In this document: in pieces, positions 1,098 through 59,314 of the stretch
Layout of the letters: every line of letters begins with the position of its first letter
How positions within the stretch are numbered: position 1 is the first letter of the stretch
Assembly (NCBI GenBank): GCA_016212855.1
Contig: JACRDP010000009.1
Location: 89,275 to 153,274, forward strand
Direction: 5' to 3'
Length of the DNA stretch: 64,000 nt
Source of the DNA: Elusimicrobiota bacterium
GTDB taxonomy: Bacteria; Elusimicrobiota; Elusimicrobia; UBA1565; UBA9628
Program-made: the position numbers and the translations under genes
Notes under the pieces: model-generated
The model's input: only the letters and a program-made list of their open reading frames with translations
What the model was told of the DNA's origin: nothing
Database searches by the model: none

Positions 1098-2222
1098 TTG
1101 AGATCGCGCCTGGCTGGATCGCGGGGAATCGCTTCCCTGTCATTCCGTTTGAGTTCCGCAGTCCGGCTCGAGAAGATCCCGCGATCCGCTAAGGCCCTCT
1201 CTGCCAACCATGCTCGTGACGAGATGATCGGTCTAGTCGTGCGGGCTGACAATGCCCTGCACGTTCCGGTAACGGCGATTAATCTCGAGGTCTGGAATCT
1301 CCTGACCGGCCTTCGGGGCGCCCCGGAGGCGGATGCGGATACCGAGCGCCGCGAGATATTGCGCCGGCTCGTCATGGGTGATATTGTCGAGGTCCTCATC
1401 GACGGGGTGTGGCAGAGCGGCCCGGCGCCGCTCGCGAAAGCGCGCGATCCGCATGCTGCTGATGATGGGATGGAGCTTCGGCGACTCTCCGCCGAGGCGA
1501 TCATGTTGGCATACAAATCTCCGCGTGAGCACTCGTGGGAGCTTCTCAACCTGCTCTACTATTTCAACCGCGCACCTTTGTCACCGCGTTTGAAGCGGTC
1601 GTTGCCTGACGAGGCTGCTTGCCTACGATTTCTGGGTATCGCCAACGGCTCTTGCCGAATAGGCGGAAGGCGCTTCGACTTGCCTTTGCGACTTTCGCAC
1701 AACGGACGGGGATGGCGGACCTGGCGCCGCCAAGGAAATGGGCCGACTCGGCAAGTGATGGATGCAAGGCATAAGGTCTATATCAGTCCTCAGCTAGAGC
1801 AATTGCCGATGGTCTTTCGAACGACTTGTGCGCTCGCGTTTGAATCGAGCGCGGCATCCTTAAAAATCGGCGCGAGCCTGACCGAACTGCTTCGGCCGGA
1901 CAAGATGGTCGTCTATTTCGCGCGAGCGAGCGACGCCCAGGCTTTCGCACGTCGAGTCCTCACGAAAATGCCGCATGTCCGGGCGCAAGGCGTCCCGTTT
2001 TCCTGGCAATTCGGATCGACAGCCCTCGTGTCTCTCGGCGTCGATCCACTTGGGGCATCCGGCCATAGCTGGCGCACGTGGGTTTGCGAGGCTATCTCCA
2101 CCGCGATTTTGAGCGCTCGTCGTAGGGCCTCCCTCGATCCTCAGGCTTTCGTGTCGCGGCGCCTCGAGGCGATCGGTGTCGATACCGAGAGATGGATGCC
2201 GAAGACCTCGTGCCGGCTCTGA
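1098..2222 (+). CDS. HopA1-effector-like protein, candidate phospho-Ser/Thr lyase partner of the adjacent kinase-cyclase
   Basis: 374-aa ORF starting 4 nt after peptide 2. The start is uncertain (TTG 1098 or ATG 1224). The C-terminal half (HKVYISPQ...SLKIGASLTELLRPDKMVVYFARASDAQAF) resembles, from memory, HopA1-family proteins found in class V lanthipeptide clusters. No search was run. Confidence 0.4.
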   Translation: MRSRLAGSRGIASLSFRLSSAVRLEKIPRSAKALSANHARDEMIGLVVRADNALHVPVTAINLEVWNLLTGLRGAPEADADTERREILRRLVMGDIVEVLIDGVWQSGPAPLAKARDPHAADDGMELRRLSAEAIMLAYKSPREHSWELLNLLYYFNRAPLSPRLKRSLPDEAACLRFLGIANGSCRIGGRRFDLPLRLSHNGRGWRTWRRQGNGPTRQVMDARHKVYISPQLEQLPMVFRTTCALAFESSAASLKIGASLTELLRPDKMVVYFARASDAQAFARRVLTKMPHVRAQGVPFSWQFGSTALVSLGVDPLGASGHSWRTWVCEAISTAILSARRRASLDPQAFVSRRLEAIGVDTERWMPKTSCRL

Positions 2223-9881: not shown

Positions 9882-12205
9882 TTCTTGTCTCCTGTATTCA
9901 CGGTCGCGGCCGCCGGCCGCAACAGCCACTTGAGCCCGTCGGCCGCGGCTTTATTCTTGGGCTGGATCGCGAGCGCGCGGCGCAGCGAGGCGACGGCCGA
10001 GGTCTCGTCGCCGATCATGACGGCCGAGACGCCCCGCCCGAGCCAGGCCGGCACCGAGGCCGGGTCGAGCTCCGCGGCGCGGCGAAACGCCGAATCGGCG
10101 CGCTGGCCCTCGCCGACGGCGGCGTGCGCGAGGCCGGTCGCCGTCCACCAGTCGGCGTCGTCGGGGTGATCGGGCTTTTCCCCGTTCTCGGGCAGCACCT
10201 CGGCGACCAACGCCATCCAGCCGGTGCCGATCACCCAGAGATCCATGTCGTTGCCGACCTGCCGGGGCTGATAGCTGACCTTGGCGGGGTTCTCCGCGTC
10301 GCCGCGTCCCGCCTCGACGGGACGCGTGAAGGTCAGGTTCATGCCGAGGCGCGCGTCGGTGTCCGGGGGCGCCTCGCGCATCGTCTTGCGCAGGTCGTCC
10401 ATGATCTTCTTCACCTGCTCGTCTCGCGGCGCGGCGTCGCCGGGCTTGAGCGCGTAGTCGCGGCGCACGGCCTGCGGCGACGAGGACGCCGGAGCGCCGT
10501 CCTGCCCGTGCGCGCGCGCGAGCGCCTTCCTGAGGCTCGCCCCCTCGCCCGGGCCGTCGCGAACGAGCTTCGGCCGCGGCAGGAACACCGCGTCCACGCG
10601 CATCATCGCGCCCTGATCCAGCGGCACGCGCCGCAGGTTGCGTTCGAAAACCGTCAAGGGATCGGTCTCCTGCGAGGGCTCGGGCTCCGGTGGCTTGGCC
10701 GCCTTCGGGTCCTCGGGAAGCTCGCCGGGCTTGGCGGCGCGCTTGCCGCCCGCGTAGGACACCGAGAGCTGCAGGCCCGGGCCGCCGACTTCGGGCGTCA
10801 GGTGAAAGGCTTCGGCCAAGGTCGCGCGCGCCTTGGAGCGGTCGCCGTTCTTGAGCTGAAGGCGGGCCAGGCGCATGCGCGCGACCGAGTCTCCGGGCTT
10901 GAGCGACACCGCCTTCTTGAGAGTGGAGGCCGCGGCCTTGTCCTCCTTGAGACGCTCCTCGGCGCAACCGAGCTCGAGCATCGCGTCCTCGTAGCGCGAC
11001 TCGAGCTTGACCGCCTCGCGCAGCTGCTCGACGGCGTCGGCGTCGCGCCCGAGCTTGCGGTAGAGCTGGCCGAGCTGGAAGCGGTACAACGGATTCTTCT
11101 TATCGAGATCGACGGCCTTGCGAAACAGCTCCAGGGCGGCGGGCACGTCGCCGCGCGTCTCGCGGATCGAACCCAGGTTCATCTGCGCGTCGGCTCTATT
11201 GGGGTCTAATTCCACGGCCTTAAGAAACGCCGCCTCGGAGGCGATCGCGTCTCCCTTCCACGCGTAGGAGATGCCGAGCAGGAGATACGACTGCGCGCTT
11301 TTCGGCTCCAGACCGAGCGAGGTTTTATACGAGACGATGGACTCGTCCACCTGGCCGTTCCAGTACTGCGCCACGCCGAGCAGCTGGTAGCCCGTGGGAT
11401 TCTTCGGATCGGCCGCGACCGCGCGCTTCATCTCCTGGAGCGCGAGCTCGTACTTTTTGTCCTCGAGATAGCGGTGCCCCTGCTGGAGTCCGCGCATCGC
11501 CTGGGCGGCCATGATCTGGTCCCACACCGTCTCCTGGCCGGGCTCGGTTTTTTCGGCCTGAACGACGGCCGAAAAAATCACCGAACAGAGCGCCGCGAGC
11601 AGCAGCGCGCGCAACCGCGGAAGCATGGCGCGCAACGCCAAGCCGCGGTGGCTGAGCGCGTTCTTTTCGTCGGGTCCCAGCTCGGCCAAGGTGCGGCCGT
11701 CGGGAAGAACGAACAGCGGGTCGTAGCCGAAGCCGTTGCTCCCCCGGGCGCGGTCGGCGATCCGGCCGTCGAGGCGTCCCTCCGCGTATTGGACCTCGCC
11801 GGCGGGACCCGCGAGGGCCATCACGGTGCGGAAGCTCGCCGCTCGCTCGGTCTTTCCGGCCAGCTCGCGGACGAGTTTGGCGCAATTGTCGGCGTACGAG
11901 CAGCCCGGTCCGGCCCAGCGCGCGGAGTACACGCCGGGCGCGCCGCCGAGAGCCGGCACCTCCAGGCCCGTGTCGTCGGCCAAGGCCCAGGTCCCGCAGG
12001 CGCGGGCGGCCTCGACCGCCTTTTTGCGGGCATTGCCCTCGAGCGTGTCCTGGTCTTCGACGGTCTCGGGAAAAGGCGCAAACGCGTCGAGCGACGCGAC
12101 GTCGACACCCGAGAGAAGGCGCGTGATCTCCTCCGTTTTGTGGGCGTTGCGCGTGGCGAGCACGAGGCGGACCGGGTGACGGGACAAGGGGCGAAATGTT
12201 ATCAT
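9878..12205 (-). CDS. rdgB: RdgB/HAM1-type dITP/XTP pyrophosphatase domain continuing in frame into a signal-peptide/TM segment and a long TPR-repeat domain
   Basis: I start at ATG 12205 (MITFRPLS..VRLVLATRNAHKTEEI..GFGYDPLF..SHRGLAL). There is no stop before MLPRLRALLLAALCSVIFSAVVQA/EK (internal ATG at 11626), which is followed by many TPR repeats. The track ORF extension to 13357 is rejected. Confidence 0.65.
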   Translation of the reverse strand: MITFRPLSRHPVRLVLATRNAHKTEEITRLLSGVDVASLDAFAPFPETVEDQDTLEGNARKKAVEAARACGTWALADDTGLEVPALGGAPGVYSARWAGPGCSYADNCAKLVRELAGKTERAASFRTVMALAGPAGEVQYAEGRLDGRIADRARGSNGFGYDPLFVLPDGRTLAELGPDEKNALSHRGLALRAMLPRLRALLLAALCSVIFSAVVQAEKTEPGQETVWDQIMAAQAMRGLQQGHRYLEDKKYELALQEMKRAVAADPKNPTGYQLLGVAQYWNGQVDESIVSYKTSLGLEPKSAQSYLLLGISYAWKGDAIASEAAFLKAVELDPNRADAQMNLGSIRETRGDVPAALELFRKAVDLDKKNPLYRFQLGQLYRKLGRDADAVEQLREAVKLESRYEDAMLELGCAEERLKEDKAAASTLKKAVSLKPGDSVARMRLARLQLKNGDRSKARATLAEAFHLTPEVGGPGLQLSVSYAGGKRAAKPGELPEDPKAAKPPEPEPSQETDPLTVFERNLRRVPLDQGAMMRVDAVFLPRPKLVRDGPGEGASLRKALARAHGQDGAPASSSPQAVRRDYALKPGDAAPRDEQVKKIMDDLRKTMREAPPDTDARLGMNLTFTRPVEAGRGDAENPAKVSYQPRQVGNDMDLWVIGTGWMALVAEVLPENGEKPDHPDDADWWTATGLAHAAVGEGQRADSAFRRAAELDPASVPAWLGRGVSAVMIGDETSAVASLRRALAIQPKNKAAADGLKWLLRPAAATVNTGDKK
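12200..12205 (+). promoter_or_regulatory. -10-like hexamer TATCAT, 7 nt upstream of GTG 12213 (leaderless-type arrangement)
   Basis: TATCAT tttccct GTG with no Shine-Dalgarno. The pattern recurs at other genes in the window. Confidence 0.3.
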
Positions 12206-12212
12206 TTTCCCT

Positions 12213-12506
12213 GTGAGACGGCTCCTCCTGACTTTCCTCGCCGCGGCCCTCCTCTCCTCTTCCGCCTGCCGCAGTTTCAAGCAGGAGGACGACCTCTCGG
12301 ACCAGGCGGTCAAGGTGCGCCTGGAGTCCCTCCTTCGCGGCCGCCGCGACCTCGACCTGAAGTACGTCACCGTCGACGTCAACGCCGGCGTCGCCACGAT
12401 CTCCGGCATCGTGCCCGCCGCCGACCAGGCCCGCGTGATCCGCCGCCTCGCCGCGGGCGTAAAGGGCGTCGACCAGGTCCTCAACAACCTCGTCATCCAA
12501 GAATGA
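12213..12506 (+). CDS. BON-domain lipoprotein
   Basis: Signal plus lipobox (LLSSSAC). BON-like ..DLKYVTVDVNAGVATISGIVPAADQARVIRRLAAGVKGVDQVLNNL. Confidence 0.7.
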   Translation: MRRLLLTFLAAALLSSSACRSFKQEDDLSDQAVKVRLESLLRGRRDLDLKYVTVDVNAGVATISGIVPAADQARVIRRLAAGVKGVDQVLNNLVIQE

Positions 12507-13489
12507 ACGAGCGGCGTTTGCGCGCCGACCTGCTGCGCTGGTACGGCCGGGCCAAGCGCGACCTCCCCTGGCGCCGCAACCCGACTCCCTATCGCGTCTG
12601 GGTGTCCGAGATCATGCTCCAGCAGACGACCGTCGCGGCGGTGACGCCGAAATACCTGGCCTTCCTGCGGCGCTTCCCGACGCTCGCCTCGCTCGCGTCC
12701 GCGACGGAGGACGCAGTCCTTAAGCAGTGGGCCGGCTTGGGCTACTACTCGCGCGCGCGCAACCTGCGGCGCGCGGCTCAGGCCGTCGTCGCCGAGCACA
12801 GCGGCCGATTTCCCGCCGATTTCGACGCGGTGCTCGCGCTCCCCGGCATCGGACGCTACACCGCCGGCGCGATCCTGTCCATCGCCTTCCAGAAGCCCTA
12901 TCCGCTCGTCGACGGCAACGTGATCCGGGTCTTCACCCGGCTCTTCTGCCTCAAGGGCCGCGCGAAGGACCCGGCGTTCGTCAAAAAGATGTGGCCGCTG
13001 GCCCAGCGCCTCGTGCCGGCGGCCCTGCCCGGCGATTGGAACCAGGCCCTGATGGAACTCGGCGCGACGGTTTGCACGCCCGATTCCCCCTCCTGCGGCG
13101 CATGTCCCGTCGCGAAGCATTGCGTCGCGTTCCGGAAAGGGCTCCAGGACGGGCTTCCCCTTCCGGAGATCCGACGCGAGCCCGTGCCCGTGCACTGGAG
13201 CTGCCTTTGGATCGAAAAAAATGGGAAGGTTCTGCTGTGGCGGCGCTCCGACAAAGAGCGGCTCCTCAAGAATCTGTGGGGCCTGCCGGAGGCGGGGCGC
13301 GTCGAGGCGACGCCAGGGCGAATGCTCGCCATGACTTGGCACTCGATCACTCATCACGCCTTGACCGTAGAGCTACGCGAGGCGGCCTTGGCCGGCGGAG
13401 CGCCTCCCGAGTCGAAGTGGGTGCCGCGCGGCGCCATCCGCGACTACCTCGTCTCGTCGCTCTGGCTCAAGCTCCTCCCGTCGCGCTAG
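12503..13489 (+). CDS. mutY: A/G-specific adenine DNA glycosylase
   Basis: I start at ATG 12503 (ATGA overlap). WYGRAKRDLPWR, VWVSEIMLQQT, LPGIGRYTAGAI, Fe-S loop CTPDSPSCGACPVAKHC, NUDIX-like C-terminus. Confidence 0.9.
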   Translation: MNERRLRADLLRWYGRAKRDLPWRRNPTPYRVWVSEIMLQQTTVAAVTPKYLAFLRRFPTLASLASATEDAVLKQWAGLGYYSRARNLRRAAQAVVAEHSGRFPADFDAVLALPGIGRYTAGAILSIAFQKPYPLVDGNVIRVFTRLFCLKGRAKDPAFVKKMWPLAQRLVPAALPGDWNQALMELGATVCTPDSPSCGACPVAKHCVAFRKGLQDGLPLPEIRREPVPVHWSCLWIEKNGKVLLWRRSDKERLLKNLWGLPEAGRVEATPGRMLAMTWHSITHHALTVELREAALAGGAPPESKWVPRGAIRDYLVSSLWLKLLPSR

Positions 13490-13563
13490 GCGCTTTACCG
13501 AACTTTTGCCCCGGCTTCACCGAATTATATCCAGCCTGTAATACCCTTTCGCCGCTCCGGGTC

Positions 13564-13569
13564 TACACT
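13564..13569 (+). promoter_or_regulatory. -10-like hexamer TACACT, 6 nt upstream of ATG 13576 (leaderless-type arrangement)
   Basis: TACACT gcgggt ATGAG with no SD. Nearly identical context at 15143-15159. Confidence 0.4.
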
Positions 13570-13575
13570 GCGGGT

Positions 13576-13935
13576 ATGAGCTTCATTCTGGTGATCGAGG
13601 ACGAGGAGGACATCTCGGAGTTCCTCCGCTATGTCCTGGAAAACGAGGATTACACGGTGAAGACGGCCGGAAGCCTCGCCGAAGCGCGCGCGCACCTCAA
13701 GGTCGGCCTGCCCGACGCCGTGCTCCTCGACCGGGGCCTGCCCGACGGCGACGGCCTCGAGATCTGCCGTGAGCTCAAGAAGGCGGGCGTCAAGCCGCCC
13801 ATCCTCGTCCTCAGCGCCCGAAAAAATCCCGACGAGGTCAGCGAGGGCCTCGCGGCCGGCGCCGACCACTACATCGTCAAGCCGTTCGATTTCATGGACC
13901 TTCTGTCCCGCCTGAGCCCCGCCCAGCCTTCGTAG
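13576..13935 (+). CDS. single-domain response regulator (CheY-like receiver)
   Basis: MSFILVIEDEEDI.., DAVLLDRGLPDGDG, VLSAR, KPF. I start at ATG 13576 inside track ORF 12727..13935. Confidence 0.85.
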   Translation: MSFILVIEDEEDISEFLRYVLENEDYTVKTAGSLAEARAHLKVGLPDAVLLDRGLPDGDGLEICRELKKAGVKPPILVLSARKNPDEVSEGLAAGADHYIVKPFDFMDLLSRLSPAQPS

Positions 13936-51674: not shown

Positions 51675-52910
51675 CTACTTCGGGACGACGACGCCCTTCA
51701 GGTCGGGCGACTCCGGATACTTAAGCCCCATGCGGCTCATCGTCTTGCGCAGAAGCTTCGTGAAGTCGAGACGCACGCGCGGCTTGTCGTCGGCCGCGAG
51801 AACATGCCAGGGCGCATACCAAGTGCTCGTGCGCGCCAGAATCGAGCCGAACACCTTCTGCAGGGGATCCCACTTCTTGCGCGTCTCCAGATCGTACATC
51901 GAGAACTTCCAGTTCTTGTCCGGGCGGTCGATGCGCCTCTGCAGCCGCTCGCGCTGCACGTCCTTCGAGATGTGCAGGAACACCTTCACGATCTTGATGC
52001 CGCGCCGCGCCAGCTCGAGCTCGAAGGCGTTGATGCGGGCGTAGCGCGCCTCGATCGTCTCGCCGGGCATGGTCTCCCAGGCCGTGGGCACGATGATGTC
52101 CTCGTAATGAGAGCGGTTGAACACGCCGATGATGCCGGGCTTGGGCAGCGCCGCCTTGATGCGCACGAGGAAGTCCTGCGCGGCCTCCTCGGGGGTCGGT
52201 TTTTTAAAGGCGTTGACGTCGACGAAGGCGGGGTTGAGGCCGGTCATGCCGTGCTTGATCACGCCGTCCTTGTGGGCCGTGTCCATGCCCTGGATGACGA
52301 CGAGCACGGACTGGGTCTTGGCCGCGGCGAGAATGTCCTCGAGCGCGTTGAGCTTCTTGACCTCCTTCTTGAGCTTCTTGGCCGCCTTTTTCTCGGACAC
52401 GCCGTCTTCGTCGTTGGTCGGAACGAGCGACAGGTCCACGGCTTCTCCCGGCGCGGCGACGGCGCCGTCGAAGCGCTCGTTGAGCGCCTGGGCGGCCTCG
52501 ACGAGCGACTTGCCCCCGTCTTTCGACTTGGCGAGCATTTCCCCCAGCTCGGTGAGCCTGTCGGCGGCCTTGTGCGCCTTCTCGCCGCCCGCGGCGCGCA
52601 AGGACTTCACGAGCTCGGGAAGAGCGGTTTGCGGGGCGGCCACGGCCTGGGTGATCGCGGCGCGGGCCGCGAAGACGGCGGGAGTCGCCGCGACCGGGGT
52701 CGGGGCGATGTTCGCCTGGAACGCGGCTTTCAGCTGGGAAACGGTCTCGGCCGCGAGCAGGGGCTTGAGCTGGGAGTTGATCTCCGAGACGACGGGGCCG
52801 CGGAAAACGGGGACGACCGGCTCGGACAGGACGGGAACGCGGACGACCTGGGCGAAGGACGGGGCGCCGAGCAGGACGGCGCAGGCCAGCGCCGTAAGGA
52901 ATCGCCTCAT
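51675..52910 (-). CDS. ppk2: polyphosphate kinase 2 (PPK2) family protein with a signal-like N-terminus and a ~190-aa Ala-rich extension
   Basis: I start at ATG 52910 (MRRFLTALACAVLLGAPSFAQ). PPK2 core ..VLVVIQGMDTAHKDG.. (Walker A-like), ..VFNRSHYEDI.., ..KVFLHISK..Q..R... Confidence 0.75.
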   Translation of the reverse strand: MRRFLTALACAVLLGAPSFAQVVRVPVLSEPVVPVFRGPVVSEINSQLKPLLAAETVSQLKAAFQANIAPTPVAATPAVFAARAAITQAVAAPQTALPELVKSLRAAGGEKAHKAADRLTELGEMLAKSKDGGKSLVEAAQALNERFDGAVAAPGEAVDLSLVPTNDEDGVSEKKAAKKLKKEVKKLNALEDILAAAKTQSVLVVIQGMDTAHKDGVIKHGMTGLNPAFVDVNAFKKPTPEEAAQDFLVRIKAALPKPGIIGVFNRSHYEDIIVPTAWETMPGETIEARYARINAFELELARRGIKIVKVFLHISKDVQRERLQRRIDRPDKNWKFSMYDLETRKKWDPLQKVFGSILARTSTWYAPWHVLAADDKPRVRLDFTKLLRKTMSRMGLKYPESPDLKGVVVPK

Positions 52911-53001
52911 GCGCACAGTATAAAGGTATGCGAACAAGCCCGGTTGGGCCGACTGGGGAAGGCCGGCCCGGAAAAAGGGCCTAGATGGTACAATCGATCC
53001 G

Positions 53002-53445
53002 ATGAAGATTCTCTTGATGCTGGCGCTGCTGGCCGGAAACGCCGGGGCCAAGAAGGCGCCCCAGGGCATGACGCGTTTCAACGAGACGTGCCCGGTCGCC
53101 CGGCTACTGCCGGTCCTGGAGGACGACTACGCGGCTTGCTCGAAGAAGGAAAAGACCGCCTGCGACGGCTTCGTCTCCGGCTTGCGCGAGTTGCTCCCGG
53201 AATACGACTGCCAGCGCCCGTTCGACGCCGGCCCGCCGGACGACTACATCGTTCCGGCGATCTGGAAGGCGGGCGACGCAGCCCTCGCGAAATACGTCGC
53301 GCTTCTGGCGAGCCTCAAGACGAAAAAGGCGCTCGAGCTGTTCGCCAGCCCGGAGTTTCGGGCCATCTTGGACGGCCATTTGGCCGAAACCTACATGGAA
53401 CGTTCGAGGGCCGCGCAGAAGCGGCTGAAGGTCAGGCGACCTTGA
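53002..53445 (+). CDS. secreted hypothetical protein (4 Cys)
   Basis: Signal MKILLMLALLAGNAGA. No motif recognised. Its 3' end overlaps the convergent rSAM-1 gene by 14 nt. Confidence 0.4.
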   Translation: MKILLMLALLAGNAGAKKAPQGMTRFNETCPVARLLPVLEDDYAACSKKEKTACDGFVSGLRELLPEYDCQRPFDAGPPDDYIVPAIWKAGDAALAKYVALLASLKTKKALELFASPEFRAILDGHLAETYMERSRAAQKRLKVRRP

Positions 53446-54394
53446 TGTCCCAGCACTCGTTGGCGTGCTTGAGCAGGTCGGTCTCGGTCTGAGCGCGGCG
53501 CACGAACTTCTGCACTTCTTCCGACTTCCAGGCGGCGCCGACCTTGGGCCAGGCTGAGGCCAGGCTTTCCTTCTTCAGGTCGGCCACGGCGAACGGCAGC
53601 GCGTTCAGAAGCTTGGCGCGGCCGTTGGGCACGACGAGCACCATGCTTTGAGGGCTCTCGGCGCGGGTGACCATCTCCTGCTGGATGCCCCACGGGTAGA
53701 TCGCGAGCTTGGGCCCCTTGAGGGCGGCGGCCGCGACCTTGAGGCTCATCACGGCGTCCTTCCACTGCTCGTCGGTCGCCGCGAGCGAGTCCCAGGCATG
53801 CGCGGCCCGCCCTAATCGCATCATGGGCCCGGTGACGAAGGTTCGCACACCTCGCTTGGCGGCCTGCTCGTACACGCTGACCGCGTCATTGACATTAATT
53901 TTCGTTGGAATAAAAACGAGTTCAGGTTCGAGCCCGCGCTTAACAAGGCGGTCGATCGCCGCCCAAGCGGGGGCGTAACCAGAGCCCGGCCTGAGCCGTT
54001 CGTGGATTTCCCCGGTGGCGCCGTCGATCGAAATCTGGACACATGCGATTTTGAGTTCCTTCAATTTGTCGCATGCGGCGTCGTCGAGATCCAGTCCGTT
54101 CGTCTCGATCTTGATCTCGACGCCGCCTTTCGTGAGGGTCTCGAAAATCTCGATGGCCCAGGGCGAGCCCATCGGTTCCCCGCCGCCGAAGGCGACGTAC
54201 GCGATCCCGTTTGAAACGATTTGGCGGGTTAAATTTAATGCCTGCTCGCGGTTCATCTCGTCGGGCCACGCCTTGTCCGGCCCCGACTCCTCGCAGCAAT
54301 GCAGGCAGCGCCCCGTGCAGCGGTTGCTCAGCTGCCAGGCAAGAAAGAGGGGGGCGCCGTAGTCGCCCACGGACGCCCCCCTCCGGTCCGGCAT
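53432..54394 (-). CDS. radical SAM enzyme, paralog 1 (PqqE/SPASM-superfamily-like core, Cys-free C-terminal domain)
   Basis: CTGRCLHC (CxxxCxxC), GGGEP, ETNG, SIDG. No Cys downstream of the core. ATG 54394 lies 1 nt after the stop of the 39-aa ORF. Confidence 0.8.
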   Translation of the reverse strand: MPDRRGASVGDYGAPLFLAWQLSNRCTGRCLHCCEESGPDKAWPDEMNREQALNLTRQIVSNGIAYVAFGGGEPMGSPWAIEIFETLTKGGVEIKIETNGLDLDDAACDKLKELKIACVQISIDGATGEIHERLRPGSGYAPAWAAIDRLVKRGLEPELVFIPTKINVNDAVSVYEQAAKRGVRTFVTGPMMRLGRAAHAWDSLAATDEQWKDAVMSLKVAAAALKGPKLAIYPWGIQQEMVTRAESPQSMVLVVPNGRAKLLNALPFAVADLKKESLASAWPKVGAAWKSEEVQKFVRRAQTETDLLKHANECWDIKVA

Positions 54395-54395
54395 T

Positions 54396-54515
54396 TTACG
54401 TGAACCGGATGTAAGGCTGGGCCATCACGCGCTCGGAAACTTCCTCCAAAGAGGGCGTCTCCCAAGCGAGCTTCGGCTCGGCCTTCGCATCGGTCACGGT
54501 TTTCTGGTCGTTCAT
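54396..54515 (-). CDS. 39-aa candidate precursor peptide (not in the supplied ORF track): MNDQKTVTDAKAEPKLAWETPSLEEVSERVMAQPYIRFT
   Basis: My own reverse-complement translation: ATG at 54515-54513, TAA at 54398-54396. AAGAGGA lies 4 nt upstream, 11 nt after the rSAM-2 stop. Wedged between two rSAM genes in an operon that also has a PqqD-like protein. W-x-x-P...EEV resembles PqqA-type leaders. Confidence 0.55.
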   Translation of the reverse strand: MNDQKTVTDAKAEPKLAWETPSLEEVSERVMAQPYIRFT

Positions 54516-54526
54516 GTGTCCTCTTT

Positions 54527-55486
54527 TCACCGGCTGACCATCGCCGGCAAATCTTGTTCCAGCTCCGTCCATTCATTCGCGCGGGCCGACCGCTTCGGGT
54601 CGGCCGCCAGCAGCGCCAGCGCCTCGCGCACCTGCGCCGTGGCCCACGCGGCTTTGTACGACTCCCACGCGGCGAGGAAATCTTGCGTTTTAAGGTCGGC
54701 GCACGTAAAGGGCAGCGGGGCGGCGACCTTCACCTTCCCGTCGGGAAGGATCAACAACGTGCCGGAAGGCTGCAAAGCCCGGTGCGCCATCTCCTCGCGC
54801 AGCGAGAAGGGTTTGTAGCACAGCTCCATGCGTCCGGCCAGTTCGCGCTCCTTGCGCTCTAAAACGCGCAGGAAGGCCGCGTAATCGGCCTTGGACGGCT
54901 CGAGCCGGTCCCATAGCTTCGCCGCGGTGCCAAGACGCATGAGCTCACCGGTGTTGAACCGGAAAGCGCCCAGAGACAAGGCTAGATCGATCACGGCTTC
55001 GGCTTCGAAAATATTGAGGCGCGTCGGCGCAAAAGTGATTTCAAGAGGCAGGCCCGCGGCTACGACGCCCCGGCAGGCTGTTATGGCCCGGTCGAGATCA
55101 CCATTGATCCGTTGCCGTCCGTACACCGCCTGAGACGCGCCATCCAGCGAGATCTGAACCGATCTAATCCCGAGACCCTTCACCGAATCCACATCGAAAT
55201 TGTTGCCGTTCGTTTCGACCTTGAGGAGCACCCCTCCGTCCGAAAGTGTTCGGCACACCTCGGCGAAATGCGGCACAAGCGTCGGCTCCCCGCCCACGAT
55301 CATCGCGTACGGCACTCCCGCGGCGACGATCTCGCGCGAGAGCTTGAGCGCCTGCTCCCGCGTGAGTTCCCCCGCCAACGCTTTGCCCGGCGCGGAGTCG
55401 GTGCAGCAATGGAGGCAGGCCAGGTCGCAGTCCCTGGTGAGCTGCCAGGTGACCATGGTCGGGGCGGCGAATTGTTCGATCTTCAT
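54527..55486 (-). CDS. radical SAM enzyme, paralog 2 (Cys-poor C-terminal domain)
   Basis: CDLACLHC, VGGEP, ETNG, SLDG. Only 2 Cys after the core (..ELCYKPF.., ..PFTCADL..). ATGA overlap with the prenyltransferase gene. Confidence 0.8.
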   Translation of the reverse strand: MKIEQFAAPTMVTWQLTRDCDLACLHCCTDSAPGKALAGELTREQALKLSREIVAAGVPYAMIVGGEPTLVPHFAEVCRTLSDGGVLLKVETNGNNFDVDSVKGLGIRSVQISLDGASQAVYGRQRINGDLDRAITACRGVVAAGLPLEITFAPTRLNIFEAEAVIDLALSLGAFRFNTGELMRLGTAAKLWDRLEPSKADYAAFLRVLERKERELAGRMELCYKPFSLREEMAHRALQPSGTLLILPDGKVKVAAPLPFTCADLKTQDFLAAWESYKAAWATAQVREALALLAADPKRSARANEWTELEQDLPAMVSR

Positions 55487-56400
55487 TTAGAGATCGCCGT
55501 AAACACGGCGAATAAAAAAGTGGTCAGCGCGTAGCACTGCACAATGGCGCGAATGGCGGGCATGAACAGTCGCGGCGTATCCCACGTGGTGGCGCCGGCA
55601 CGTAAAGAAATAATCCAAAGCGGGACTCCGGCGGCCGCGGCAAGAAGGGTCAACGAAGGGAACAGGCCCGTCGCAACCCCGAGCGGGATCGTCAGCAGCC
55701 CCAGCGCGGACATGGCCAGGTAGAGATACCTTCCGTTTTTGCGCCCGAGCCGAACGACCAGATTTTTCTTGCCCACCAGACGATCCTGATGAAAGTCCGG
55801 AATGTTGTTCACCGTCGCCAGCGCGGTGATCAAAAGCCCCGGCACGAGCGAGGCCAGCAAGGCCGCCCACGAAAAACGATGGGTGTGAAGATGCAGGGAC
55901 CCTAAAACCATCCACGGACCATAAGAGAGGCCGATGACGGTTTCGCCGAGCCCGCGATAAACCCAACGAATCGGGGGTCCCACATACCACACCGCCGCGG
56001 CGCCGCCCAGCAACGTATAGAGAACGATAGGCCAGCCGCCCTGCCAGGCGAGATAGAAACCGATGGACGCGGCCACGGCGAAGGCCGTCACGCCGAGCGA
56101 GAACATCCATTCGGGAATATATTCCTCGGCATCGGGATTGAAGACGCGGTCGGTGCCCATCTTGGCGTCGTAGTACTCGTTGAATGATTCAACGCCGATA
56201 ACCGACAAGAATATCCCGAACAGCCCCAACAGAAAAACGCTTCCGTTAAACGTCTTCTCCACCCCATACGCCCACGCTCCGCCCAGGAAGTAGGGCAGAA
56301 GCCCCGCGTACAGGAAGAACCTGTAGCGCACGACCGAGGCGACCTTCATGACGATGGTCTGCTCGGCCGGCGCGTGCGGGGCGGCGAAGACGTCGCTCAT
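55483..56400 (-). CDS. UbiA-superfamily aromatic prenyltransferase, MenA-like
   Basis: I start at ATG 56400 (ATGA overlap). FNEYYDAKMGTD (compare MenA NDYxDxxxGxD), YVGPPIRWVYRGLGETVIGLSYGP, NNIPDFHQDRLVGKKNLVVRLG (compare MenA NNxRDxxxDxxxGKxTLxVRLG). Multi-TM. Confidence 0.8.
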   Translation of the reverse strand: MSDVFAAPHAPAEQTIVMKVASVVRYRFFLYAGLLPYFLGGAWAYGVEKTFNGSVFLLGLFGIFLSVIGVESFNEYYDAKMGTDRVFNPDAEEYIPEWMFSLGVTAFAVAASIGFYLAWQGGWPIVLYTLLGGAAAVWYVGPPIRWVYRGLGETVIGLSYGPWMVLGSLHLHTHRFSWAALLASLVPGLLITALATVNNIPDFHQDRLVGKKNLVVRLGRKNGRYLYLAMSALGLLTIPLGVATGLFPSLTLLAAAAGVPLWIISLRAGATTWDTPRLFMPAIRAIVQCYALTTFLFAVFTAISK

Positions 56401-57353
56401 GCGGCTCCGACCTCCTCCCACTGATGCAGGCGGGAGACGATGTTGGGATCTTCGGCCAAGCGGTCGATGAAGGCCGACACGCGCGGGCTCTGCCAGGCCT
56501 TCTGGAACTGAGCCCAGACCTGGCCGAGCGTCTGCAGGCGCAGGTCGCCGCAGGTGAATGGAAGCGCGTTGATGAGCTTGACCTTGCCGTTGGGCAGGAT
56601 GATGAACAAAGCGGCGGGATTGATCAGGCGGTAGCGCAGCTCCTCGAGGAGCCCCATCTCATGGTAGTACACGCGCATCTTGCCCTTGTACTGCTCGGTT
56701 TTCTTGGCGAGCGTCGCGAAGAACTCCGGGTAGTCCGCCTCGTCGGGGGCGGTGATGCCCCAGGTGCGCACCGCGTTGCCGGTGAACATCAGCTTGCCGG
56801 TGTAGAAGGAGTAGGCGCCGATCTCGTAAGCGAGATCGACCGCGGCGCCGATCTCCTTGATGTTGAACCGGGCCGGGACGAAGTTGATCTCGATCGGAAC
56901 GCCCGCCTCGCGGAGGTTCTTGATGCCGTTGAGGGCTTCCTCGAAGCGGCCGTGCACGCGCATCTTGTTGAAGGAGGCGGTGGACGCGCCGTCGAGCGAG
57001 ACCTGCACGGCCTTCACGCCGAGATCCTTGAAGCGCTTGCAGTTCTCCTTGGTGAGGTAGTGGCCGTTGGTCTCGATCTTCAGGCCCACGCCGCCCTTGG
57101 TGATGCGTTCGACCATCGGGAAGAAGTCGGGGCGGACCATGGGCTCGCCGCCGGAGAAGGAGACGTACGGGACCTCGCTTTTCACGAGTTGGTCGATGAT
57201 GCCCATCGCCTGCTCGGTGGTCAGCTCGTCCTTGAAGGCCTTACCCGGGCCGCTTTCCTCGATGCAATGCAGGCAGGCGAGGTTGCACTCGTTGGTGATC
57301 TGCCACGCCACGTACAGCGGCGCCCCGAGGTCCGACGTCTGTTGGTCTTCCAT
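56397..57353 (-). CDS. radical SAM enzyme, paralog 3 (Cys-poor C-terminal domain)
   Basis: CNLACLHC, SGGEP, ETNG, SLDG. A single Cys after the core (..PFTCGDL..). Confidence 0.85.
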   Translation of the reverse strand: MEDQQTSDLGAPLYVAWQITNECNLACLHCIEESGPGKAFKDELTTEQAMGIIDQLVKSEVPYVSFSGGEPMVRPDFFPMVERITKGGVGLKIETNGHYLTKENCKRFKDLGVKAVQVSLDGASTASFNKMRVHGRFEEALNGIKNLREAGVPIEINFVPARFNIKEIGAAVDLAYEIGAYSFYTGKLMFTGNAVRTWGITAPDEADYPEFFATLAKKTEQYKGKMRVYYHEMGLLEELRYRLINPAALFIILPNGKVKLINALPFTCGDLRLQTLGQVWAQFQKAWQSPRVSAFIDRLAEDPNIVSRLHQWEEVGAA

Positions 57354-57358
57354 GGTGT

Positions 57359-57799
57359 TTACTCGACGATCAATCCTTTTTCCTTCAGCTGAGCGAGGAA
57401 CGTCTCGGCCTCCGTCGCCATCTTGCCGGTCGGGTCTTCGAACTTCTCCTTGAGCTTGGCGACGAGGTTGGACGACTCGGCGCCCGCGATGACCTCGCGC
57501 ACGACGGCCGCGCCGGTGGGGCTCAAAGTGTAGACCTTCTCGGAGCGCGTCTCGAACAGGACCGCGCCGAACTTCTCTTCACGGAATTTGACGAACGGGG
57601 CGAGTTTCATGATTCCCTCTCTATGGGCGACGAGGCAGGAGTTGGCGTCCCAGACCTCGCGCGCCGCGATCTCTTCCATCTCACGTCTGACCTTCAGAAT
57701 GCTGGCCGTGTCCGCCGCGTCGGCCTGAACGGCTTCGGTTTCAGAGACGACGAAGTCTCCGCTCTTCCACGACTTTCGGAGCAGGGCTTCGTACGACAT
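57359..57799 (-). CDS. PqqD-like (RRE-type) peptide-chaperone domain protein, 146 aa
   Basis: The C-terminal ~85 aa (FREEKFGAVLFETRSEKVYTLSPTGAAVVREVIAGAESSNLVAKLKEKFEDPTGKMATEAETFLAQLKEKGLIV) follow the PqqD strand-strand-strand then three-helix pattern. The N-terminal ~60 aa are unassigned. Confidence 0.6.
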   Translation of the reverse strand: MSYEALLRKSWKSGDFVVSETEAVQADAADTASILKVRREMEEIAAREVWDANSCLVAHREGIMKLAPFVKFREEKFGAVLFETRSEKVYTLSPTGAAVVREVIAGAESSNLVAKLKEKFEDPTGKMATEAETFLAQLKEKGLIVE

Positions 57800-58746
57800 T
57801 AAAATTCTCTCTTAGCCATGATCTCGACGAAGAAAGCGAGTTCCTTCGCCTCGGCCTTGCAGGGCAGCTTGTCGATCATGGCCAACATCGAGTCCACGAT
57901 CTCGCGGCCTTTCGCCCGCGTCTTCTGTATGCAGCCGCGATCCTTCAAGAGCTTGGCGATCTTCGCCGCGTCGGGCTTCTCTTCGTTCCATAAAGCCAGG
58001 AACTCGTCCCTGACGGTCGGATCCTGAACGGCATAGATGCACGGCAAGGTCAGCTTGCGATTGGCCAGGTCCTGACCCTCGTCTTTGCCCGAGATGCGGT
58101 CCGACAAAGTGTAATCATGAATGTCGTCGACGATCTGAAGGAGAATGCCCGCGGCGCAGGCCAGGCGAGGCGGATCGCTTTGCTCATGCGGGAAGCTCGA
58201 GAGCTCCGAGAGCACCGACCCGGCCCACTCGAACAAGGCGCCGGTCTTGCGCGACGCGACGCCCATGTAAGCGTCGACGGTCACTTCGAGAGAGCCCTTC
58301 AAAAACTCTTCCTGCAACTCGCCCACGGTCATCTCGCGCACCGTGGTGACGAGAAGCTTGGGCGCGTTCGGGGAGATATCGATGGCCTCTTCGAGGCCCT
58401 GCGCGAAGGCCAGGTCGCCCAGGAGAAGGCCCGTGGTCGTGCCGAAAATCTTGTTGGGGGTCGGATGCCCGCGGCGCAGGTCGGCCTCGTCCACGCAGTC
58501 GTCGTGGAGCAAAGACGCGTTGTGGACCAGCTCCATGGCCCGCGACACGCCCTCGGCCTTCTCCTGGTCCACGCCCAGGGCGCCGGACAGAAGGAGCGCG
58601 AAGCGCGAGCGCAGCATCTTTCCCGGGCGGGAGATATGGGCCGCCAACTCCTGTCCCACGCGCCCCTCGATGCGGCGGGCGCGGCTTTCCAAGCCGGCGC
58701 GTACTCGCGTCAGGGAGTCCTCGACCTTAAGAAGGGAGATCGGCAT
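57799..58746 (-). CDS. polyprenyl diphosphate synthase (IspB-like trans-prenyltransferase)
   Basis: First Asp-rich motif LLHDDCVDEADLRRG and second IVDDIHDY. 1-nt TAATG overlap with the downstream gene. Confidence 0.85.
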   Translation of the reverse strand: MPISLLKVEDSLTRVRAGLESRARRIEGRVGQELAAHISRPGKMLRSRFALLLSGALGVDQEKAEGVSRAMELVHNASLLHDDCVDEADLRRGHPTPNKIFGTTTGLLLGDLAFAQGLEEAIDISPNAPKLLVTTVREMTVGELQEEFLKGSLEVTVDAYMGVASRKTGALFEWAGSVLSELSSFPHEQSDPPRLACAAGILLQIVDDIHDYTLSDRISGKDEGQDLANRKLTLPCIYAVQDPTVRDEFLALWNEEKPDAAKIAKLLKDRGCIQKTRAKGREIVDSMLAMIDKLPCKAEAKELAFFVEIMAKREF

Positions 58747-58767
58747 GGGGTTCTCGATTATACCAAG

Positions 58768-59262
58768 TCAGGCCATCGTCTTTAAGACGGCAAGCACCTT
58801 CGGCATGACCGTGCTCCGTTCCTGCCGCGCCAGGCGGCCCAGGACGGAGTCCACCGTCTTCACGAGCTCCAACAGCTCCGAAATCTTCTTGTTGAAGCGG
58901 GGATCACCCGACTCCTTGAGACACTCCTCCAAGGCGACGATCACCGGCTCGATTTCCCGCTTCTTGCGCTCGCGCGCGATGCGGCAGCCCATGCTCCAGA
59001 TGTCCTGGTCGGCCTGGAAGTACTCGCGCCGCTCCGAACCGACCGAGACGCGCCGGATCAGCCCCCAATCGACCAGAGCACGAAGGTTCATGTTGGCGTT
59101 GCCCCGCGAAATCTCCAGACGCTCCATGATCTCGTCCGTGGACAGGGCCGCGTCGGCGGCTATGAGGAGTGCATGGATACGCGCCATCGTCTTATTGATG
59201 CCCCAGCACGAGGCCATCTCCCCCCAGGTGCGGACGAATTTGTCCTTGGCGTTATCTTTCAT
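58768..59262 (-). CDS. GbsR/MarR-family winged-helix transcriptional regulator
   Basis: I start at ATG 59262 (MKDNAKDKFVRTWGEMASCWGINKTMARIHALL..STDEIMERLEISRGNANMNLRALVDWGLI). An AT-rich promoter-like region lies at 59263-59314. 21 nt upstream of the polyprenyl synthase gene. Confidence 0.7.
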   Translation of the reverse strand: MKDNAKDKFVRTWGEMASCWGINKTMARIHALLIAADAALSTDEIMERLEISRGNANMNLRALVDWGLIRRVSVGSERREYFQADQDIWSMGCRIARERKKREIEPVIVALEECLKESGDPRFNKKISELLELVKTVDSVLGRLARQERSTVMPKVLAVLKTMA

Positions 59263-59314
59263 ATATTTCTGAAAGTATGATACATGATGAAACACTTGGG
59301 GTCAAGACCCAGAA

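Follow-up and report, generated by a model that had tools for sequence, protein, structure and literature searches.

A conserved gene module combining a small ribosomal peptide, radical SAM enzymes and a MenA-related prenyltransferase, with a possible polyprenylated product

Introduction

Why would genes for the modification of a ribosomal peptide be arranged in one operon with genes of the kind that attach polyprenyl tails to quinones? This question is raised by a cluster on the minus strand, positions 53432 to 59262, of a 64,000-nucleotide stretch from an Elusimicrobiota bacterium (assembly GCA_016212855.1, contig JACRDP010000009.1). The whole stretch is called the window below, and its GC content is approximately 65%. 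An earlier note on the window had described eight genes in the cluster, among them a 39-amino-acid (39-aa) open reading frame (ORF), a PqqD-like protein, three radical S-adenosylmethionine (rSAM) enzymes, a MenA-like prenyltransferase and a polyprenyl diphosphate synthase, and had proposed that the peptide is modified, excised and prenylated to a membrane-anchored redox cofactor or lipid. What we observe directly is that the genes exist and strictly accompany one another, that the peptide is under purifying selection, that the enzymes have kept their catalytic motifs and that no protein belongs to a curated family. We consider it very probable that the genes form a single pathway which prenylates an rSAM-modified ribosomal peptide. 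With some reserve we also favour the fuller reading, that the cassette turns a ribosomal peptide into a polyprenylated, membrane-bound product whose most likely role is that of a redox-active carrier or cofactor resembling a quinone.

Results

Architecture of the cluster

All eight co-directional ORFs were found between positions 53432 and 59262 of the minus strand. In the direction of transcription the features are:

59277..59305, minus strand: putative sigma-70-like promoter, TTGACC-17 nt-TATCAT (10/12 matches, consensus match only)
58768..59262, minus strand: GbsR/MarR-type winged-helix regulator, 164 aa from ATG 59262 (MarR_2, HTH_20)
57799..58746, minus strand: trans-polyprenyl diphosphate synthase, long-chain type, 315 aa (polyprenyl_synt)
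57359..57799, minus strand: PqqD-family peptide-binding protein (RiPP recognition element, RRE; RiPP, ribosomally made, post-translationally modified peptide), 146 aa (PqqD Pfam)
56397..57353, minus strand: radical SAM enzyme 3 (rSAM3), 318 aa (Radical_SAM Pfam)
55483..56400, minus strand: MenA/UBIAD1-related membrane prenyltransferase of the UbiA superfamily, 305 aa from ATG 56400 (UbiA Pfam)
54527..55486, minus strand: radical SAM enzyme 2 (rSAM2), 319 aa (Radical_SAM Pfam)
54396..54515, minus strand: precursor peptide gene, 39 aa (conservation; AAGAGGA 5 nt before the ATG)
53432..54394, minus strand: radical SAM enzyme 1 (rSAM1), 320 aa (Radical_SAM Pfam)

The tight junctions claimed for the cluster were confirmed by reading them directly from the sequence. 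Regulator and synthase are separated by 21 nt, synthase and PqqD genes overlap by 1 nt (TAATG), and 5 nt lie between the PqqD and rSAM3 genes. The UbiA gene overlaps both of its neighbours by 4 nt (ATGA in each case), on the rSAM3 side provided that translation starts at ATG 56400, the alternative being a GTG start at 56421. The rSAM2 and peptide genes are 11 nt apart, with a strong Shine-Dalgarno site (AAGAGGA) in the gap, and a single nucleotide separates the peptide gene from rSAM1. The operon probably starts at the sigma-70-like site placed just upstream of the regulator ATG, a kind of site that occurs only 2 times in 7 kb, where 0.8 would be expected. No Rfam family or tRNA was found when the window was scanned, and shuffled sequence gave terminator-like matches at least as often.

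The 39-aa ORF is conserved at the protein level

The small ORF (MNDQKTVTDAKAEPKLAWETPSLEEVSERVMAQPYIRFT) has a variable N-terminus followed by a conserved segment, W-E-T-P-x-L-E-E-V-S, and an invariant core, V-M-A-Q-P-Y-I-R-F-T. For analysis of its conservation 80 loci were fetched by alignment of rSAM1 homologs from one-genome-per-species collections, a sample that comprises Elusimicrobiota, Rhodopila (Alphaproteobacteria) and many Burkholderiales, and the ORF ending next to the rSAM1 start was extracted from each locus without any use of the peptide sequence. The peptide is encoded in 75 of the 76 loci with enough upstream DNA, and in those 75 the C-terminus reads W-E-T-P-x-[LMI]-E-[ED]-V-S-x-x-V-M-A-Q-P-Y-I-R-F-T. 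It was also present in 8/8 further loci reached through rSAM or UbiA homologs. The earlier note had named a missing small ORF in homologous loci as evidence against its proposal; the ORF is kept, with an invariant C-terminus. In the sole enzyme-anchored locus with upstream DNA whose rSAM1 follows neither the peptide gene nor rSAM2 (our locus L029, 4089-5000), the oddity may be a rearrangement or a mis-assembly.

The last ten residues (VMAQPYIRFT) are constant in 68 distinct DNA versions of the gene, in which the Ala, Pro, Arg and Thr codons of the core each occur in 3-4 synonymous forms. Since the residues are fixed while the synonymous codons vary freely, the translated peptide must be under purifying selection, and on this sequence evidence the 39-aa ORF is a genuine gene under strong selection. 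Its core is more conserved than the enzymes of the module, and a Met is found at position -4 from the Tyr in all loci.

The reverse approach was a scan of metagenome contigs with a back-translated MAQPYIRFT-stop pattern, which returned at least 120 stretches. Among the 120 matches listed, module genes adjoin the peptide in 118, of which 112 are of the three-rSAM type found in the window and 6 of a minimal type described below; the two exceptions are L174 and an orphan copy, L157. Leader columns lying outside the search pattern were conserved as well among the matches listed (W 116/117, P 116/117, E7 112/117, V9 117/117, S10 114/117). Peptide and enzymes are therefore mutually predictive, as each anchor recovers the other. 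Taken together, the enzyme- and peptide-anchored samples amount to approximately 200 loci, nearly all with a peptide that ends W-x-x-P-x-[LM]-E-[DE]-V-S-x-x-[VI]-MAQPYIRFT, from Elusimicrobiota, Alpha- and Betaproteobacteria and other hosts with GC contents of 32-69%.

The orphan copy (…WETPVIDEVTERVMAQPYIRFT) lies at 1190-1220 (oriented) of L157, from metagenome contig Ga0181516_10011259; neither the 1.2 kb upstream nor the 3.7 kb downstream of it contain a PqqD, rSAM or UbiA gene. The ORF right after it looks, by eye, like a CDP-alcohol phosphatidyltransferase.

In the databases the peptide is anonymous. On 149 public contigs a gene with exactly these 39 aa has been called, each time under the label "hypothetical protein"; the contig search used the 58-aa extended frame as query and returned only Elusimicrobiota-type variants. 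Comparison with Pfam and NCBIfam gave no match even at E≤10.

The gene order is constant and a minimal form exists

Every complete locus of the 80-genome set has the order PqqD-rSAM3-UbiA-rSAM2-peptide-rSAM1, an arrangement which, on sequence grounds, is far beyond chance. The UbiA gene sits between rSAM genes, with overlapping stop and start codons, in every locus. This contradicts the suggestion, made as an alternative in the earlier note, that isoprenoid genes are there by accident. Of the block whose co-occurrence that note wanted checked, the six-gene order, small ORF included, is constant in the complete loci of this set; the synthase and the regulator are not universal. They are extras of the Elusimicrobiota, where the synthase accompanies the module and roughly one complete locus in three also has the regulator (12/33, and 0 proteobacterial loci). 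The synthase also adjoins the module in some minimal-type loci (L089, L187).

The minimal form emerged from an exhaustive search of the UbiA protein against 1.8 billion representatives. Relatives at 38-63% identity all score below the MenA cutoffs, and every one examined at 38-47% identity sits in a peptide/PqqD/rSAM/UbiA module. Such modules have the order small ORF-PqqD-one rSAM-UbiA in L087/L088, L089, L090 and L092, while L091 is of the three-rSAM type; the minimal-module small ORFs also end [VI]MAQPYIRFT, in hosts of 32% to 69% GC. The TIGR00751 cutoff was just passed only by relatives at 32-35% identity, and the one at L093 that passes a MenA cutoff has no peptide/PqqD/rSAM module around it. 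Judged by sequence identity and gene context, the UbiA proteins appear to form a clade of their own that occurs, as far as sampled, only together with peptide, PqqD and rSAM genes.

The minimal modules imply that the core system consists of peptide, PqqD protein, one rSAM enzyme and UbiA, and that the version in the window is elaborated by two extra paralogs. The rSAM trio highlighted in the earlier note is present in the window, but it is not essential, since minimal modules carry only one such enzyme. The single rSAM is 42-47% identical to rSAM3, compared with 37-42% to rSAM1 and rSAM2. In view of the coupling of UbiA, the sister-clade modules and the peptide-anchored loci, the peptide-modification and prenylation genes form one unit. 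No flanking gene family was common to different phyla, so this unit is self-contained.

The module is widespread. More than 1700 homologs place the rSAM1 family among abundant families of soil and groundwater metagenomes (1706 at E≤1e-10; the best is 96% identical, and the named matches are Elusimicrobia metagenome-assembled genomes, MAGs). The only cultured carrier found is Rhodopila globiformis DSM 161, where dnaG-rpoD and a toxin-antitoxin pair precede the module.

A few loci deviate in detail. At 11483-13925 (oriented) of L187 (GC 0.44) the order is polyprenyl synthase-peptide-PqqD-two tandem rSAM genes and then the contig end, a hint at intermediate architectures with two rSAM genes; upstream of these genes are FeoB/FeoA-DtxR-like iron genes. 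In L038 (CP096137.1, a complete Elusimicrobiota genome; 8870-10914), L048, L059 and L143 the tblastn matches to rSAM1, rSAM2 and others are split between different frames, probably by long-read frameshift errors and not because the genes are pseudogenes. In the GC-rich proteobacterial loci greedy ORF calling gave many shadow ORFs, and there we used Pfam-positive ORFs together with called genes.

The proteins fall into known superfamilies and outside every curated family

Pfam places the products where the earlier note had placed them (Radical_SAM three times, PqqD, UbiA, polyprenyl_synt and MarR_2). Sequence scores assign the module proteins to known superfamilies, yet none reaches a curated NCBIfam cutoff (MftC, PqqE, AhbD, NirJ, MenA).

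The Radical_SAM matches of the three rSAM proteins range from E 5e-15 to 3e-26, and none of them matches SPASM (PF13186). Their best NCBIfam matches are MftC, AhbD, NirJ, TIGR04053, SkfB and PqqE, all below cutoff and spanning only the N-terminal two thirds of the profiles; the MftC match, for example, is confined to positions ~1-235 of 339. In bits, for rSAM1, rSAM2 and rSAM3 in that order, the scores are 95.5, 92.5 and 132.9 for MftC (TIGR03962, cutoff 265), 65.7, 85.4 and 140.6 for AhbD (cutoff 500), 63.5, 67.8 and 116.7 for NirJ (cutoff 515), 63.1, 61.2 and 119.2 for AhbC (cutoff 650), and 38.8, 62.4 and 94.1 for PqqE (TIGR02109, cutoff 381). Membership of the trio in the AhbC/AhbD/NirJ families, which would have spoken against the proposal in the earlier note, is not borne out by these scores, all far below the cutoffs. 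No MqnC/MqnE-type models were among the NCBIfam matches listed.

The three proteins are full-length paralogs with mutual identities of 35-41% (rSAM2 against the other two, 38-41% over the full length). Orthologs of the three paralogs keep the CxxxCxxC motif in 75/77, 66/67 and 60/60 cases, the last ratio being that of rSAM3, and a GGEP motif is seen in the paralog alignment. The only other conserved Cys residues are C34 and C118 in rSAM1 and C105 and C268 in rSAM3, while rSAM2 has C28, C138, C223 and C262 in addition; with 1-4 extra conserved Cys per paralog there is no SPASM-type auxiliary set. An AlphaFold (AF2) model of rSAM1 (pLDDT 89) has SkfB, SuiB and PqqE as its closest folds in Foldseek, followed by MoaA and viperin (RiPP maturases: E 1e-15 to 1e-11, TM 0.64-0.70), and the best matches of rSAM3 in the PDB are SkfB, PqqE and BlsE. 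These comparisons suggest that the rSAM proteins belong to the PqqE/MftC/SkfB lineage and lack its SPASM cysteines.

The PqqD protein matches PF05402 (E 3.7e-10, 40.4 bits, cutoff 23.4) with residues 79-144, which are preceded by an N-terminal extension, and is kept in every complete locus. It scores 38 bits with the lasso-peptide PqqD chaperone model (cutoff 70), 25 bits with MftB (TIGR03967, cutoff 33) and 19.9 with the PQQ-specific TIGR03859 (cutoff 46; PQQ, pyrroloquinoline quinone), and in the PDB it matches best with TfuB1, a lasso-peptide RRE.

The UbiA protein (PF01040, E 1.2e-22, 80.9 bits) has several hydrophobic segments. MenA models are its best NCBIfam matches, and all nine remain below cutoff (TIGR00751, 72.8 vs 102.15; NF004751, 107.9 vs 264). 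UBIAD1 is its only sequence match in the PDB, and there are weak BchG/ChlG matches. The two Asp-rich motifs pointed out earlier, NEYYDAKMGTD and NNIPDFHQDRLVGKKNL, are both there and vary hardly at all; as N-E-Y-[FY]-D-x3-G-T-D and P-D-[FY]-H-Q-D they are found throughout 63 orthologs.

The synthase (polyprenyl_synt, E 1.9e-42) contains both DDxxD motifs, as claimed for it. Heptaprenyl, solanesyl and octaprenyl models are its best NCBIfam matches and none reaches its cutoff (HepT, 126 vs 457; IspB, 101 vs 412), and the PDB entries that it matches best include hepta- and octa- as well as hexa-, deca- and solanesyl diphosphate synthases. In 34/34 orthologs Ala77-Ser78 stand at -5/-4 before the first DDxxD. 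By the chain-length rule, small residues at these positions fit a long product, and the enzyme is predicted to be of the long-chain type. The regulator matches MarR_2 (31.5 bits, cutoff 27, E 2e-7) as well as HTH_20, and scores 39.5 bits with the GbsR-type CudC model (cutoff 218).

Redox genes recur beside the module in other hosts

In 5 Burkholderiales loci a FrdC-FrdA-FrdB operon lies directly upstream on the same strand, and it is nearby in approximately 4 more, with a DctM-type transporter in between in three of these. The operon passes the curated fumarate-reductase cutoffs, and its cytochrome b matches the Wolinella quinol:fumarate reductase (QFR) at E 5e-77. A Polyketide_cyc/SRPBCC START gene is found within ~100 nt of rSAM1 in 10 loci and in two orientations; the best PDB match of its product is 1T17, which we take to be the Caulobacter Coq10 homolog. 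Other neighbours are NapC/NirT-type cytochromes, cytochrome b561, MtrC/MtrA/MtrB-like genes, an HdrD-like protein and a CyoABCD-type oxidase with a PQQ dehydrogenase. Among minimal-type loci, a membrane-anchored Fer2-FAD-NAD (NqrF-like) reductase adjoins the module in three, and an Rnf/Nqr-family complex lies directly upstream in two (L089, 186-6265; L158, 4-4028, oriented). By association only, these recurrent neighbours point to a quinone-like redox role in the membrane.

The first subunit of the Rnf/Nqr-family complexes has RnfC_N or NQRA domains. The complex in L089 is of hybrid architecture, with an NqrF-like (Fer2-FAD-NAD) last gene in place of RnfB; classification of this operon as Nqr was ruled out by its RnfC_N-type first and NqrF-like last subunit (Pfam). 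A three-subunit 2-oxoacid:ferredoxin oxidoreductase (POR; POR_N/PFOR_II, POR and TPP_enzyme_C) recurs near the module and Frd in Burkholderiales MAGs (L066, L070, L072, L075, L077, L080, L059 and L049), and POR, Frd and module together look like an anaerobic-metabolism island.

Surroundings of the cluster in the window

The flanks of the module in the window consist of housekeeping genes (PPK2, a Kbl/BioF-family gene, PurH and LigA). A 147-aa ORF at 53002-53445 on the plus strand, with a signal-peptide-like N-terminus and several Cys but no NCBIfam match, converges on rSAM1 and overlaps its 3' end by 14 nt. The PPK2-family polyphosphate kinase at 51675-53081 on the minus strand (TIGR03709, 282.8 bits vs cutoff 247) has an unexplained Ala/Pro-rich N-terminal extension of ~200 aa. 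Far from the cluster, at 2176-4638 on the plus strand, an 820-aa protein has a protein-kinase domain at residues 181-419 followed by a LanC-like domain at 490-813, the architecture of class III/IV lanthipeptide synthetases.

Discussion

A proposed pathway

What would the module make? From what is known of the family, the PqqD-type protein would bind the W-x-x-P-x-[LM]-E-[DE]-V-S segment and present the [VI]MAQPYIRFT core to the rSAM enzyme or enzymes. These, in analogy with PqqE, MftC, SuiB and SkfB, would abstract a hydrogen and thereby initiate a cross-link or a cleavage at or near the single Tyr. An rSAM3-type protein may be the ancestral and sufficient enzyme, and rSAM2 and rSAM1 could add further steps or form a hetero-complex. 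The MenA-related UbiA protein would provide the aromatic ring, once modified, with a long polyprenyl chain, the chain coming from the co-encoded synthase in Elusimicrobiota and presumably from a host synthase elsewhere, and host peptidases may trim the remaining peptide. As the conserved module has neither protease nor exporter, the product would stay in the cell membrane, where the gene neighbours suggest that it works with quinone-dependent respiratory enzymes. In its joining of peptide modification with quinone-type tailing this is the proposal of the earlier note, which our results support; it has come through the checks on the small ORF and on the rSAM families.

For the product being a redox carrier or cofactor we see roughly an even chance. 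A more specific version, in which the module is a third, ribosomally templated route to a respiratory polyprenyl quinone, a portable plug-in carrier of 4-6 genes whose head group would be cut by radical SAM chemistry from the Tyr-containing core of the peptide before a MenA-like enzyme adds the tail, is put forward tentatively and we would not rely on it. If it were true, the carrier would be used by bacteria of several phyla and would probably be of low potential, serving fumarate reductases of the menaquinol type, Rnf/Nqr-like complexes that contain NqrF, and cytochromes of the NapC/CymA type.

Several points weigh against a quinone-like product. Every chemical step is an analogy. The module contains no hydroxylase, methyltransferase, peptidase or decarboxylase, so that conversion of Tyr into a quinone would need host enzymes. 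Invariance of nine residues exceeds what PQQ and mycofactocin precursors require, and the peptide could stay largely intact. The redox neighbours are limited to subsets of proteobacterial and minimal-type loci, and respiratory genes are common in genomes anyway. Because the Frd-linked loci are mutually related (FrdA 75-94% identical), that linkage may represent only one or two independent events. In the window and in R. globiformis the flanks are of the housekeeping kind. Finally, R. globiformis has been reported to contain ubiquinone, menaquinone (MK-9) and rhodoquinone, and since it already makes these, a need for one more carrier is not apparent.

Alternative explanations

Some of these points would be accommodated by a prenylated RiPP lipopeptide that keeps most of the peptide and acts as a membrane-anchored signalling, structural or protective molecule with no electron-carrier role. 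An unbroken run of nine invariant residues suggests that the final product depends on its peptide part, the conserved module lacks a peptidase, the minimal module with one rSAM enzyme and UbiA offers only two modifications, the flanks in the window and in Rhodopila are housekeeping genes, and prenylated RiPPs such as ComX and the cyanobactins exist. We nevertheless regard this explanation as unlikely, though worth keeping in mind, in view of a core that is invariant across phyla where typical bioactive RiPPs have variable cores, the absence of an exporter or immunity gene, the long-chain-type synthase and MenA-type transferase that are hallmarks of quinone tails, and the recurrence of Coq10-like START, QFR and NqrF-like neighbours. 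Less probable still is that a small aromatic molecule is the substrate of the rSAM and UbiA proteins, in a novel route to a menaquinone-like head group with the peptide and PqqD protein as scaffold, activator or regulatory subunit. The resemblance of UbiA to MenA/UBIAD1, the missing peptidase, the lack of the SPASM auxiliary clusters typical of peptide cross-linkers and the menaquinol-type QFR among the neighbours would all fit. PqqD/RRE domains, however, are known from the family only as binders of peptide substrates, conservation peaks at the C-terminal core around the Tyr as in the substrates PqqA and MftA, and no chorismate, futalosine or Men genes were seen in any module.

It is very improbable that UbiA and the synthase are ordinary (demethyl)menaquinone tailing enzymes which happen to lie beside an unrelated peptide-maturation system. 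The best family matches of UbiA are indeed 1,4-dihydroxy-2-naphthoate polyprenyltransferase models, and R. globiformis does contain MK-9; but the protein and its relatives down to 38% identity fall below every curated MenA cutoff, translational coupling ties the gene to its flanking rSAM genes in every locus, all sampled members of the sister clade lie in similar modules while the MenA-passing relative does not, and no other men genes are nearby. The haem alternative of the earlier note, an AhbC/AhbD/NirJ-like set acting on a tetrapyrrole in haem or haem d1 biosynthesis with UbiA as an enzyme resembling haem O or chlorophyll synthase, is contradicted by the data and hardly credible. It could draw on the 141 bits of rSAM3 with AhbD, its 136 bits with NirJ2 and the weak BchG/ChlG matches of UbiA. 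Against this stand cutoffs of 500-650 bits, which the scores are far from reaching, the lack of a SPASM domain or auxiliary-cluster Cys set, the constant presence of the PqqD protein and the conserved peptide, the absence of tetrapyrrole genes from every locus, and RiPP maturases as the top Foldseek matches. A prenylated, membrane-bound product of the rSAM-modified peptide, most likely redox-active, remains the reading that we prefer.

Novelty and meaning

Full-text literature searches, which did not cover subscription-only papers, found no description of the cassette, and the cluster goes unmentioned in the main genomic survey of Elusimicrobia from groundwater. Together with the lack of any family match this agrees with the earlier note, which knew of no described pathway that joins the two logics. 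Few cofactors are known to be cut from ribosomal peptides (PQQ, mycofactocin and protein-bound quinones), and to our knowledge the head groups of all known membrane quinones come from small-molecule metabolism (chorismate, futalosine, 4-hydroxybenzoate or homogentisate). The chance that the product represents a categorically new class is considerable. If our reading is correct, the module would add either lipid-anchored cofactors derived from peptides, as a new class, or lipidated RiPPs of a novel kind, produced by a UbiA-family enzyme. The question can be tested directly, because the module occurs in the cultivable R. globiformis DSM 161. In addition, a small ORF ending in MAQPYIRFT is a precise annotation marker, helpful for genes now labelled "hypothetical", "radical SAM protein" or "prenyltransferase".

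Comparison with known systems

The module has the generic feature of RiPP and peptide-cofactor systems, a conserved precursor gene located together with an RRE and modifying enzymes. Generic domains aside, none of the defining features tested for the Mft, Pqq, MenA and Ahb/NirJ systems was found.

In mycofactocin biosynthesis the MftF transferase adds a sugar (glucose) tail to a peptide-derived head group. The module shares with this system a small precursor with a conserved, Tyr-containing C-terminal core, a discrete PqqD-family chaperone and a tailoring transferase that would tail a peptide-derived head group, and MftC is the best or near-best NCBIfam match of all three rSAM proteins. The tail, however, would be polyprenyl and not glucose, and would be attached by a membrane enzyme of the UbiA family. 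The rSAM proteins lack SPASM and score below the MftC cutoff, the PqqD protein scores below the MftB cutoff, and no MftD, MftE or MftF genes are found in the window cluster or related loci. The peptide does not match the MftA model, and its Tyr is followed by IRFT instead of being C-terminal. The signature of MftA is IDGMCGVY with a C-terminal Tyr (PMC11162802), and its M-x3-Y spacing is the same as in the module peptide.

PQQ biosynthesis likewise yields a peptide-derived redox cofactor by means of a radical SAM enzyme and a PqqD chaperone, and PqqE is among the closest folds of the module enzymes. PqqE cross-links Glu to Tyr, and MftC Val to Tyr. PqqA has a W-x-x-P start, ~17 residues to the Tyr and four residues after it, the same format as in the module peptide. 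Where PqqA has the Glu that is cross-linked, however, the module peptide has Met (M-x3-Y instead of E-x3-Y), and it does not match the PqqA Pfam model at E≤10. Furthermore, the rSAM proteins lack SPASM and are below the PqqE cutoff, PqqB and PqqC are absent from every locus and PqqF is not part of the module either, whereas a prenyltransferase is. The SPASM/twitch maturases (SkfB, SuiB and anSME-like enzymes) resemble the module enzymes in overall fold, and they depend on an RRE and act on a peptide, as is predicted for the module enzymes, but the latter have neither PF13186 nor the seven-Cys auxiliary-cluster set, and they are three paralogs arrayed around a membrane prenyltransferase.

On the isoprenoid side, the module has in common with menaquinone tailing (MenA/UBIAD1 with IspB/HepT) a UbiA fold with both Asp-rich motifs, a long-chain-like synthase and, in some hosts, a menaquinol-type QFR as neighbour. 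It differs in a UbiA protein that fails all nine MenA equivalog and subfamily cutoffs and falls in its own clade, and in the lack of Men or Mqn head-group genes. Prenylated RiPPs also have an isoprenoid group added to a ribosomal peptide. ComX and the cyanobactins are secreted, have variable cores and are made by soluble ComQ-type or ABBA/F-family prenyltransferases with C5-C15 donors, whereas the module combines an integral-membrane UbiA protein and a long-chain-type synthase with an invariant core and no exporter. Thus, while a member of none of these groups as far as sequence comparison can tell, the system resembles mycofactocin and PQQ biosynthesis joined to a tailing of the menaquinone type.

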